Shown here: one piece after another, positions 55,601 through 58,600 of the stretch
How positions within the stretch are numbered: position 1 is the first letter of the stretch
Layout of the letters: every line of letters begins with the position of its first letter
NCBI RefSeq assembly: GCF_000027125.1
Contig: NC_017626.1
Direction: 5' to 3' (one strand)
From: Escherichia coli 042
GTDB lineage: Bacteria > Pseudomonadota > Gammaproteobacteria > Enterobacterales > Enterobacteriaceae
Length of the DNA stretch: 64,000 bases
Position numbers: made by a program

Positions 55601-58600
55601 CCCACTCACCTGGTCGAAGACCGCGCTGACGCTGTATCAGAGCGGCAACAACTATGCCACCAGCTCCATCGCCGATTACGACCGTAACGGTACGGGCGAT
55701 CTGTTTATCACCCGTGATGACTACGGTACAGGCTATATCAACGGCTTTACCAATAACGGCGATGGCACCTTTTCCAGCGCTATTCAGGTCACCGTCGGCA
55801 CCCTGACGTGGTACGGCTCGATTGTGGCATTTGATAAAGAGGGCGACGGCTATCTCGACTTCTGGATTGGCGACGCGGGCGGGCCGGACTCCAACACCTT
55901 CCTGTGGAACAACGCAGGTACGCTGGTAGGTAACTCCACCACGTCGAACAGCGGCGGTAGCGCCACGGTGGGCGGGGCGGTGACGGGGTATCTTTCGCTC
56001 AACGAAGGTTCTGGCGTCGATCTGAACAATGACGGCAGGATCGACCTGGTTCAGCACACCTACAACCTGAACAACTATTACACGCTATCTTCGCTCATCA
56101 ACCAGGGGAATGGGACGTTTGTCTGGGGGCAGAACACCACCAATACCTTCCTGAGCGGGGCGGGCAGTGGCGCTATGAGCAGCAGCGTTTCCATGACCTG
56201 GGCGGATTTCGATGGTGACGGCGATATGGATCTCTTCCTGCCTGCCAGCCAGGGAAGAGCTAACTACGGCTCCCTGTTATTCAACACCAACGGCGTGCTG
56301 GGCAGTCCGGTGGCGGTGGGGGCAACGGCAACCACCTACGCCAGCCAGTTTAGCGTGGCGGTGGACTGGAACCATGACGGTCTGATGGATATCGCCCGTA
56401 TCGCCCAGACCGGACAATCGTATCTTTATACCAACGTCAGCAACGCCAGCAACTGGACACAATCGGCCCTCGGAAGCAGTCAGAGCGGTACGACCAGCGG
56501 CGTGGCGGCAATGGACTACGACTGGGACGGCGCGGTGGATGTGCTGGTGACTAAACAGTCGGGCAGCGTCTATCTTATTCGCAACACCAACACGGTGAGC
56601 TACGGCACTTCGCTGCACCTGCGCATCACCGATCCCAACGGCATTAACGTCTATTACGGCAATACCGTGAAGCTGTACAACTCGGCGGGGGTGCTGGTCG
56701 CCACGCAAATCATTAACCCGCAGTCGGGGATGGGGGTTAACGACACCTCGGCGCTGGTCAACTTCTACGGGCTGAACGCCGGGGAAACCTACAACGCGGT
56801 GCTGATCAAATCCACCGGCACCACCGCCAGCAATATCGACCAGACGGTAAACACCACCTGGGGCGGCTTACAGGCCACCGATGCCACTCACGCTTACGAT
56901 CTCAGCGCCGAAGCAGGCACCGCAAGCAACAACGGCAAGTTCGTCGGCACGGGCTATAACGACACCTTCTTCGCCACCGCAGGCACCGATACTTACGATG
57001 GCTCCGGCGGCTGGGTGTACAGCTCCGGCACCGGAACGTGGCTGGCGAATGGCGGGATGGACGTGGTTGATTTCCGCCTCTCGACGGTGGGCGTGACCGC
57101 GAACTTAAGCAGCACCACCGCGCAGGCTACTGGCTTTAACACCTCGACATTTACCAATATCGAAGGCATTTCCGGCTCGAATTTTAACGACACTCTGACC
57201 GGCAGCAGCGGCGATAACCAACTGGAAGGGCGCGGCGGCAACGACACGCTCAACATCGGCAACGGCGGTCACGACACCTTGCTCTATAAACTGCTCAACG
57301 CCAGTGACGCCACTGGCGGCAACGGCTCGGATGTGGTGAATGGCTTTACGGTAGGGACATGGGAAGGCACCGCCGACACCGATCGCATTGATATTCGTGA
57401 ACTGTTACAGGGCAGCGGCTACACCGGCAACGGCAAAGCCAGCTACGTCAACGGCGTGGCAACGCTGGATGCGCAGGCCGGAAACATCGGTGATTTTGTC
57501 AAAGTCACCCAGAGCGGCAGCGACACCATCGTGCAGATCGACCGCGACGGCACGGGCGGCACTTTTGCGGCAACTAACGTGGTCACGCTGACGGGCGTGC
57601 ATACCGACCTCGCCACTTTGCTGGCGAATCATCAGTTGATGGTGGTGTAGAGAATGAAAAAAAATGCCCAGTCCGTGGAAGCCTGGCTGGAGGCGATGAT
57701 CGCCGTGGCGCGTTATTACCGCCTTGATTTTTCTCAGGAGAACGTGCGCGCGACCGTCAACTGGGAGCGCGACAGCAAGCGGGAGGAGTTGCTCACCGAC
57801 ATGGCGCGGCAACTGGGAATGGGGCTGCGGCTGGTGGAGTTTTCCGCTGATTCGCTTAACCCCTGGCGGCTGCCGCTGATCGCGGTATTTGATAATCAGC
57901 AGGTTGGCGTGATCACCCGCCGTGACAATCACGACAATATCAGCATTCAGTTCAGCGGTGACGAAGGGCTGGAAACTACGCTTAACGTCGCGGATGTTGA
58001 GGATAAAATCGTTGAACTGGCGCTACTGCGCCCGCTCAGCGCCATCCCTGACGCGCGGGTGGATGACTACATTCGCCCGTATCAGGCGAACTGGTTCTGG
58101 AGCCTTTCCCTAAAAGACTGGCGGCGCTATGGCGATATTATGCTGGCGTCACTGGTGGCGAACGTGCTGGCGCTGGCGGCGATGATTTTCTCGATGCAGG
58201 TTTACGACCGGGTGGTTCCGGCGCAGTCCTACCCGACGCTGTGGGTACTGTTCGCCGGGGTGATGATGGCGATCCTGTTTGAGTTTTGTATGCGTATGGT
58301 GCGCACGCACCTTTCCGATGTGATCGGTAAGCGGGCGGATCTGCGCATTTCGGATCGCGTTTTTGGTCACGCATTACGGCTGAAAAATAACGTGCGATCG
58401 AAATCTACCGGATCGTTTATCTCGCAGATCCGCGAGCTGGAATCGGTGCGGGAGCTGATTACTTCCACTACCATCGGCGCGGTGGCGGATCTGCCGTTCT
58501 TCCTGCTGTTTGTCTTTATTCTGTGGATGATCGGCGGCTGGTTGGTGCTGGTGGTTTTGCTGGCGTTGCCCTTGCTGGTGATCCCCGGCCTGCTGGTGCA

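Follow-up and report, generated by a model that had tools for sequence, protein, structure and literature searches.

Introduction

Active C39 peptidases such as PCAT1, ComA and LahT (PF03412) adopt a papain-like fold and form the N-terminus of an ATP-binding cassette (ABC) exporter. A domain of the same fold stands in the same place on HlyB, the type I ABC exporter of a repeats-in-toxin (RTX) protein. This C39-like domain (CLD; PDB 3ZUA, 7SGR, 8DCK) lacks the catalytic cysteine, the position being taken by Tyr9, and keeps Trp77 and His83, the latter being the accepted equivalent of ComA His96. Further relatives are LapB of Pseudomonas fluorescens and LssB of Legionella pneumophila. The N-terminal domain of LapB has neither the C39 cysteine nor the HlyB-type tryptophan, and the LapB-like transporters including LssB form a separate clade which serves adhesins with an N-terminal retention module (Smith et al., bioRxiv). 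The term 'LapB-type N-terminal CLD' has been used in a Legionella survey. Here we analyze an ABC transporter (permease/ATPase) of 720 amino acids (aa), encoded at 57654..59816 (+ strand) in a stretch of 64,000 nucleotides (nt) from Escherichia coli 042 (contig NC_017626.1), hereafter called the window. With a probability of roughly 85%, residues ~8-127 of this protein constitute a catalytically dead C39-fold domain of the LapB/LssB type on the type I exporter of the giant adhesin SiiEA.

Two other described systems are close to this locus. SiiF, encoded on Salmonella pathogenicity island 4 (SPI-4), exports a giant adhesin with immunoglobulin (Ig)-like repeats as well, and its N-terminal domain was predicted in a preprint to be C39-like and to lack the cysteine. 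Compared by description, SiiF differs in its gene order and in its cargo, since the adhesin encoded here is the BapA-related SiiEA of NCBIfam and not SiiE. In E. coli O157, a study from 2025 identified O-island 28 (OI-28) as a type I secretion/RTX adhesin system that is needed for early adherence of enterohaemorrhagic E. coli (EHEC). The transporter was named hlyB28 in that study, and C39 or CLD domains were not discussed.

Fold of the N-terminal Domain

Relatives of the first 160 aa of the transporter were collected among 1.84 billion representative proteins, which gave 156 matches. An alignment of 31 homologues covering the domain (A1) was turned into a profile, and this profile was searched against solved structures. 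Its matches to solved C39 and C39-like structures span the whole domain, with E-values of 5.5e-12 for 3B79, the C39-like domain of a Vibrio parahaemolyticus toxin-secretion ABC protein, 9.6e-7 for the HlyB CLD (3ZUA, aligned over its full length), 1.5e-5 for the PCAT1 peptidase domain, 2.9e-3 for LahT and 7.7e-3 for ComA. An AlphaFold2 model of the domain, built on A1, reached a mean predicted local distance difference test score (pLDDT) of 90.6. When this model was compared to the PDB by Foldseek, the top 24 matches were all C39 or C39-like (E 6e-8 to 8e-4, template modeling score (TM-score) at most 0.75), and more distant papain-like proteases followed beyond them. From the profile matches, the model and Foldseek, the core of the domain, which is non-catalytic, was placed at residues ~8-127 (57675..58034, +). 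If the full-length transporter is compared to solved structures, ABCB1-type proteins dominate through the transmembrane and ATPase domains, and the full-length alignments to HlyB (residues 10-700) and PCAT1 reach into the N-terminus. We regard the assignment of the domain to the C39/C39-like fold as secure. A preliminary description of this locus had taken the N-terminus to be C39-related and had proposed to align it to the HlyB CLD and to true C39 peptidases; these alignments bear it out.

Among solved structures, 3B79 comes closest by profile as well as by fold (E 6e-8, TM-score 0.75). Its residue at the catalytic cysteine position is Pro, as is the case for a quarter of the transporter's family. 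However, the two share only 19% identity, and 3B79 has Leu where the transporter family has a near-invariant Trp11. In the literature searched, no published function was found for 3B79.

Catalytic Positions

The catalytic positions were taken from the A1 profile alignments, and family columns were counted over about 100 representatives. At the place of the catalytic cysteine (HlyB Tyr9, PCAT1 Cys21), the transporter possesses Ala10 (codon GCC, 57681..57683, +; codon checked). Among 103 family members, Ala (26), Pro (24), Gly (16) and Ser (11) prevail in this column and Cys is found once. Within PCAT1, the chain of 7N87 also shows Ala at Cys21, and we take this to be a Cys21Ala construct. The catalytic histidine (HlyB His83, ComA His96, PCAT1 His99) is replaced by Val84 (GTT, 57903..57905, +) according to the profile alignment. 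This column comprises Val (62), Ile (25) and Leu (15) and not a single His in 108 sequences; the orthologue from strain O157:H7 Sakai has Ile84. To cover a shifted alignment, four columns on each side of the Cys position, five to six around the His position and five around the Asp position were inspected. Cysteine was seen only twice in ~100 sequences within four columns of its catalytic site, while histidine was absent from its column and from two columns on either side and rare (2-3 of ~107) three or more columns off. The lone histidine of the transporter domain, His93, falls into a variable loop column with His in 4 of 102 sequences.

Judged from its sequence, the N-terminal domain is a non-proteolytic C39-like domain. 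This had been predicted by the preliminary description, which had suggested a check for the catalytic Cys/His pair; Ala10 and Val84 stand in place of that pair. As a possible refutation the same description had named an alternative catalytic nucleophile, and one might indeed envision an active peptidase that processes the adhesin by means of a serine or a displaced Cys/His. Ser27 is near-invariant, Ser101 occurs in 62% of the family, and a TAAG dialanine motif lies near the N-terminus of the presumed substrate, all of which would suit such an enzyme. However, a family-wide scan of the columns for enrichment of Cys, His or Ser brought out only the non-catalytic column 21 and Ser27 as prominent, and no conserved pair of alternative nucleophile and base was found among the family columns. 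No conserved His is placed as a general base: in column 21, part of a Y-H/Y motif in helix 1, His is found in 75% of the family, whereas the transporter has Tyr21, and the non-proteolytic HlyB has His21 as well; in column 146, which belongs to the linker and lies outside the core, His is found in 30%, whereas Asn146 is present here. Furthermore, the peptidase domain of PCAT1 has an equivalent Ser (in KMSLAK) outside its catalytic Cys and His positions, and the dialanine motif of the LapA system is cut by the periplasmic protease LapG and not by the transporter (Smith et al., bioRxiv). Taken together, processing of the adhesin by an alternative nucleophile is extremely improbable.

The sole family member with Cys at the catalytic column is a metagenome homologue (P0064, loci L004 and L005; ENKICWLNSL), which has no His at the catalytic His position. 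Its locus comprises genes for a TolC-like protein, an ABC transporter and an adaptor, with an IS21-type element upstream, and its 8-kb contig contains no giant open reading frame (ORF).

Cysteine Content of the Transporter

In the entire translation of 57654-59816 (+), cysteine occurs only at residues 212 and 401. The first codon, TGT at 58287..58289 (+), specifies Cys212 within EFCMRMV, the very motif given in the preliminary description, and is located inside the predicted second transmembrane helix (TM2), outside the N-terminal domain. Residues 1-211 are free of cysteine, and so are the first 199 codons (57654-58250) for which this had been noted. That interval is wider than the domain itself, as the C39-like core (~8-127) is followed by a linker (residues 128-158) and by TM1 from about residue 159. 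A longer N-terminus that hides a cysteine is impossible, because an in-frame stop is found two codons upstream of the ATG at 57654 (TAG AGA ATG), which itself begins 3 nt past the stop of the giant upstream ORF.

The preliminary description had deduced the non-proteolytic nature of the domain from this cysteine-free stretch. While the conclusion stands, the reasoning is weaker than it appears. At a proteome cysteine frequency of ~1.1%, a stretch of 211 aa would lack Cys by chance with P ~0.09. In the homologous N-terminal domains, Cys makes up 0.56% of residues and is missing altogether from 37 of 75, and therefore its absence is not significant on its own. Not the overall lack of cysteine, but the aligned catalytic column is the informative test for this domain.

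Subfamily Assignment

The transporter passes the NCBIfam model TIGR03375 (type_I_sec_LssB) with 835.4 bits over residues 10-701 (cut-off 693.1), whereas it fails the HlyB model TIGR01846 with 389.8 bits (cut-off 725.55). The N-terminal 159 aa alone obtain 72.8 bits with the LssB model and 15.8 bits with the HlyB model. Both hallmarks of HlyB are replaced, His83 by Val84 and Trp77 by Val78 (57885..57887, +; profile alignment), and in the family the Trp77 column contains Glu (42), Gln (35) and Val (12) but no Trp in 110 sequences. The domain thus lacks the C39 Cys and the CLD Trp alike, which is the definition of the LapB-like subgroup given by Smith et al. (bioRxiv). Further likeness to LapB and LssB comes from the giant adhesin as substrate, with its BapA/LapA-style N-terminal prefix, its TAAG motif and its C-terminal RTX repeats. 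Differences are the location on an E. coli genomic island beside cueR and the interruption of the adhesin gene. In this assignment, NCBIfam membership and the annotation of the Sakai orthologue serve as proxies for the authentic LapB and LssB sequences.

The preliminary description had considered the domain to be of the haemolysin type. If taken strictly, this would mean an HlyB-type CLD that binds the RTX region of its substrate via the same surface as HlyB does. In favor of this view, the profile aligns over the entire HlyB CLD (9.6e-7), Foldseek matches the model to 3ZUA with E 8.5e-7, the full-length alignment with HlyB extends over residues 10-700, and the substrate does have RTX repeats. 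However, the HlyB subfamily model is failed by a wide gap (390 vs. 725) and the LssB model passed, no family member has Trp or His at the columns of Trp77 and His83, the identity to 3ZUA is only 16% (15-16% for the HlyB CLD in general), and domains of the LapB/LssB type belong to a separate clade (Smith et al., bioRxiv). The family also has invariant motifs of its own, Trp11 and PDARVDxYIxP in the linker. We conclude that the domain is of the LapB/LssB type and not of the HlyB type; the term haemolysin-type does not hold in its strict sense, and binding of the RTX region in the manner of HlyB is unlikely.

Conserved Residues and Linker

The family possesses a conserved set of its own, which comprises Trp11, Ser27, a WRLP motif with Pro74, an SGD motif and the linker P127...PDARVDxYIxP. 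In the transporter the linker motif reads PDARVDDYIRP (residues 132-142; 58047..58079, +) and lies between the C39-like domain and TM1. No other part of the N-terminal region is as strongly conserved across the family, the core of the domain included. Within A1, D133 and R135 are invariant and P127, D137 and Y139 reach at least 90%; counts over the wider family gave D133 in 68 of 69 and R135 in 69 of 69 sequences. Model confidence is lower in the linker (pLDDT 69-74). To our knowledge, PDARVDxYIxP has no counterpart in the HlyB sequence. In the literature searched we found neither a function assigned to this linker nor a published model that explains why it is more conserved than the core.

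One might speculate that the LapB-type domain, together with P127...PDARVDxYIxP and Trp11, forms a distinct docking module for channel-plugged adhesins and is not a mere degraded copy of the HlyB domain. Such a module could interact with the adaptor's short cytoplasmic tail, or could hold the N-terminal retention module rather than the RTX repeats. We offer this as a tentative idea with a rather low probability.

The Presumed Substrate SiiEA

Directly upstream of the transporter, the giant adhesin gene siiEA (36873..57650, +) encodes the presumed substrate (NF047714, adhesin_SiiEA, 507 bits). The protein has a BapA prefix-like domain at its N-terminus and RTX repeats at its C-terminus, along with Ig-like and FG-GAP repeats, in agreement with Pfam matches to BapA_N (1.2e-19), Big_13, FG-GAP_3 and HemolysinCabind. 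A double-glycine leader was not found in SiiEA. The TAAG sequence occupies residues 97-100 (37161-37172) and lies within the span of the BapA prefix-like model (residues 5-132). It fits the canonical dialanine motif cleaved by LapG, [T/A/P]AA[G/V]. SiiEA thus combines the features of a LapB-group substrate: giant size, RTX repeats, a dialanine motif and, if BapA_N corresponds to the retention module of LapA, an N-terminal module of that kind. As in LapA, TAAG precedes a Gly-rich hydrophobic stretch.

In strain ECA64, siiEA is a single intact coding sequence of 20,778 nt. Compared to ECA64, the gene in the window has one additional G in a G run at 38201, one A less in an A run at 45795, and a nonsense change from TGG to TAG (Trp to stop) at 51069-51071. 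The two indels could be homopolymer sequencing errors, which is less likely for the substitution. None of the 955 complete genomes with the region shows the nonsense change, the best match to the surrounding 201 bp being 99.5% identical.

Two side observations concern the same gene. Between the frameshifts (38800-46800), mismatches to ECA64 amount to 27-75 per kb, as opposed to 0-3 per kb elsewhere in siiEA and in the transporter genes. This points to a block of repeats that is mosaic or has recombined, and whose history differs. In strain Sakai, the adhesin (11354-31822 of locus L008) is annotated as two ORFs, ECs_0541 with 1461 aa and ECs_0542 with 5291 aa, which appear to be those that the 2025 OI-28 paper calls 'RTX proteins' z0609 and z0615. 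With this split, a C-terminal secretion signal is possible only on the second ORF and the N-terminal prefix domain only on the first. The 2025 paper contains no discussion of an adhesin split into two ORFs.

Proposed Role and Points Against It

In our reading, the dead C39-fold domain sits on the cytoplasmic side of the type I secretion ABC exporter, which together with the adjacent HlyD-type adaptor and the TolC-like channel exports SiiEA with its C-terminus first. By analogy with the HlyB CLD, the domain itself would not cut anything. Instead, it may dock or chaperone the unfolded substrate, scaffold the complex of transporter and adaptor, or do both; the docking role is one we infer from that analogy. 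The contact surface probably differs from that of HlyB, because the substrate-binding residues of HlyB are not conserved and another invariant set is present. The cytoplasmic N-terminus of HlyD comprises ~60 aa. In the adaptor encoded here it comprises only ~20 aa, which likewise makes a different interaction surface likely.

Several observations weigh against the reading of a dead LapB/LssB-type domain on a working SiiEA exporter. First, the Pfam model Peptidase_C39 (PF03412) yields only 16.2-19.1 bits on the transporter, below the gathering threshold of 22, and its match covers profile positions 15-102 and begins after the Cys column. Second, a single-sequence phmmer search of the 160-aa domain against solved structures gave E 0.04 to PCAT1 and no match to HlyB. 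Since both scores are weak, homology to C39 rests on profile and fold. Third, the aspartate of the triad cannot be placed with confidence: HlyB Asp100 is matched by Ser101 in the alignment, and a conserved Asp/Glu is found at residue 103 (Asp103 here). This ambiguity is irrelevant because Cys and His are both lost. Fourth, no experiments on any LapB-type N-terminal domain were found in the literature searched. Finally, siiEA is broken in the window, so that export as proposed here may not take place in this strain.

From the first two points one might argue that the N-terminal region is unrelated to C39 and adopts another fold, the weak Pfam match being due to chance. An RsmG-like alternative of this kind has been weighed for SiiF in the past, the SiiF preprint having reported higher PSI-BLAST identity to RsmG. 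However, the profile matches solved C39-like domains over the full domain with E-values down to 5.5e-12, and at E <= 1e-3 the high-confidence model finds 24 chains, every one of them C39 or C39-like. A fold other than C39 is hardly conceivable for this region.

The last point leads to another scenario, in which the transporter carries the domain along as a relic without function while the whole system decays in this strain. The lost catalytic residues would fit, as would the two frameshifts and the nonsense codon of siiEA. However, only three conservative changes distinguish the first 160 aa from those of O157 Sakai, which points to constraint, and W11, S27, P74, P127, D133, R135, D137 and Y139 are invariant or nearly so across a family with 22-45% identity. 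The ABC gene is intact as well: Pfam ABC_membrane and ABC_tran are both matched, and Walker A, signature, Walker B and H-loop are all present without damage. In addition, deletion of the transporter in O157 lowers adherence (2025 study). A functionless relic is therefore very unlikely, and we maintain the reading of a dead domain of the LapB/LssB type with a putative docking or scaffolding role.

Genomic Neighborhood

The genes are arranged in the order ybaT, TolC-like gene, siiEA, ABC transporter, HlyD-type adaptor and cueR. The TolC-like gene (35409..36764, +) was identified by TIGR01844 (TolC family, 415 bits), by Pfam OEP (9e-48) and by synteny with Sakai, and the gene for the HlyD-family periplasmic adaptor, a membrane-fusion protein (59813..60988, +), by TIGR01843 (328 bits). 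The stop of the ABC gene overlaps the start of the adaptor gene at 59813-59816. The adaptor stop in turn overlaps the start of cueR (ATGA, 60985-60988), so that the island abuts the copper regulator gene without intergenic space.

The window is part of the E. coli chromosome. Strains ECA64 and CB6837 match its region 57000-61400 with 99.9% identity, and of 5426 complete genomes, 957 contain 80% or more of this region. O157:H7 Sakai shows the same gene arrangement. Its transporter orthologue ECs_0543 is annotated as lapB and is 99% identical; it has seven conservative differences, the three within the first 160 aa included, and Cys likewise only at residues 212 and 401. By gene order and composition (TolC-like gene, two RTX ORFs, ABC transporter, adaptor), we take the locus to be O-island 28 and the transporter to be the orthologue of z0634 'hlyB28'. 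In two distant homologues (P0010 and P0035), the transporter gene follows directly downstream of an ORF of more than 2000 aa and precedes an adaptor gene. Neither LapD nor LapG has a homologue in the genes covered here, namely the ORFs of the 64-kb window plus the flanks annotated in ECA64 and Sakai; beyond these stretches no search was made.

The cluster represents a type I secretion system for a giant Ig-repeat/RTX adhesin, and a bacteriocin system is excluded. In this respect the preliminary description, which had argued against a bacteriocin system, was right: in contrast to active C39 peptidases, the partner genes are those of type I secretion, the catalytic Cys and His are both absent, the Pfam model stays below its threshold, and the substrate is a giant Ig-repeat/RTX adhesin and has no double-glycine leader.

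A gene for a YadA-like trimeric autotransporter adhesin is located at 62104-63858 (-) and encodes 584 aa, while its counterparts in ECA64 and Sakai have 349 and 338 aa. It contains 2.9 copies of a 369-bp tandem repeat with 96% identity (repeats 62877-63960). Judging by these lengths, the copy number may vary between strains; the 5' end of the gene may run toward the edge of the window.

Biological Implications

The kind of domain described here is already known and the protein belongs to a curated family; the finding is correct but ordinary. Nevertheless, it confirms O-island 28 as a type I secretion system for an adhesin, as opposed to a bacteriocin exporter, and it sets right a drift in naming, as the 'hlyB28' of the 2025 O157 study is an exporter of the LapB/LssB type by curated models and signature residues. 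Consequently, mechanistic expectations for this system should follow the two-step surface-retention paradigm of LapA and LapB, rather than the release of haemolysin.

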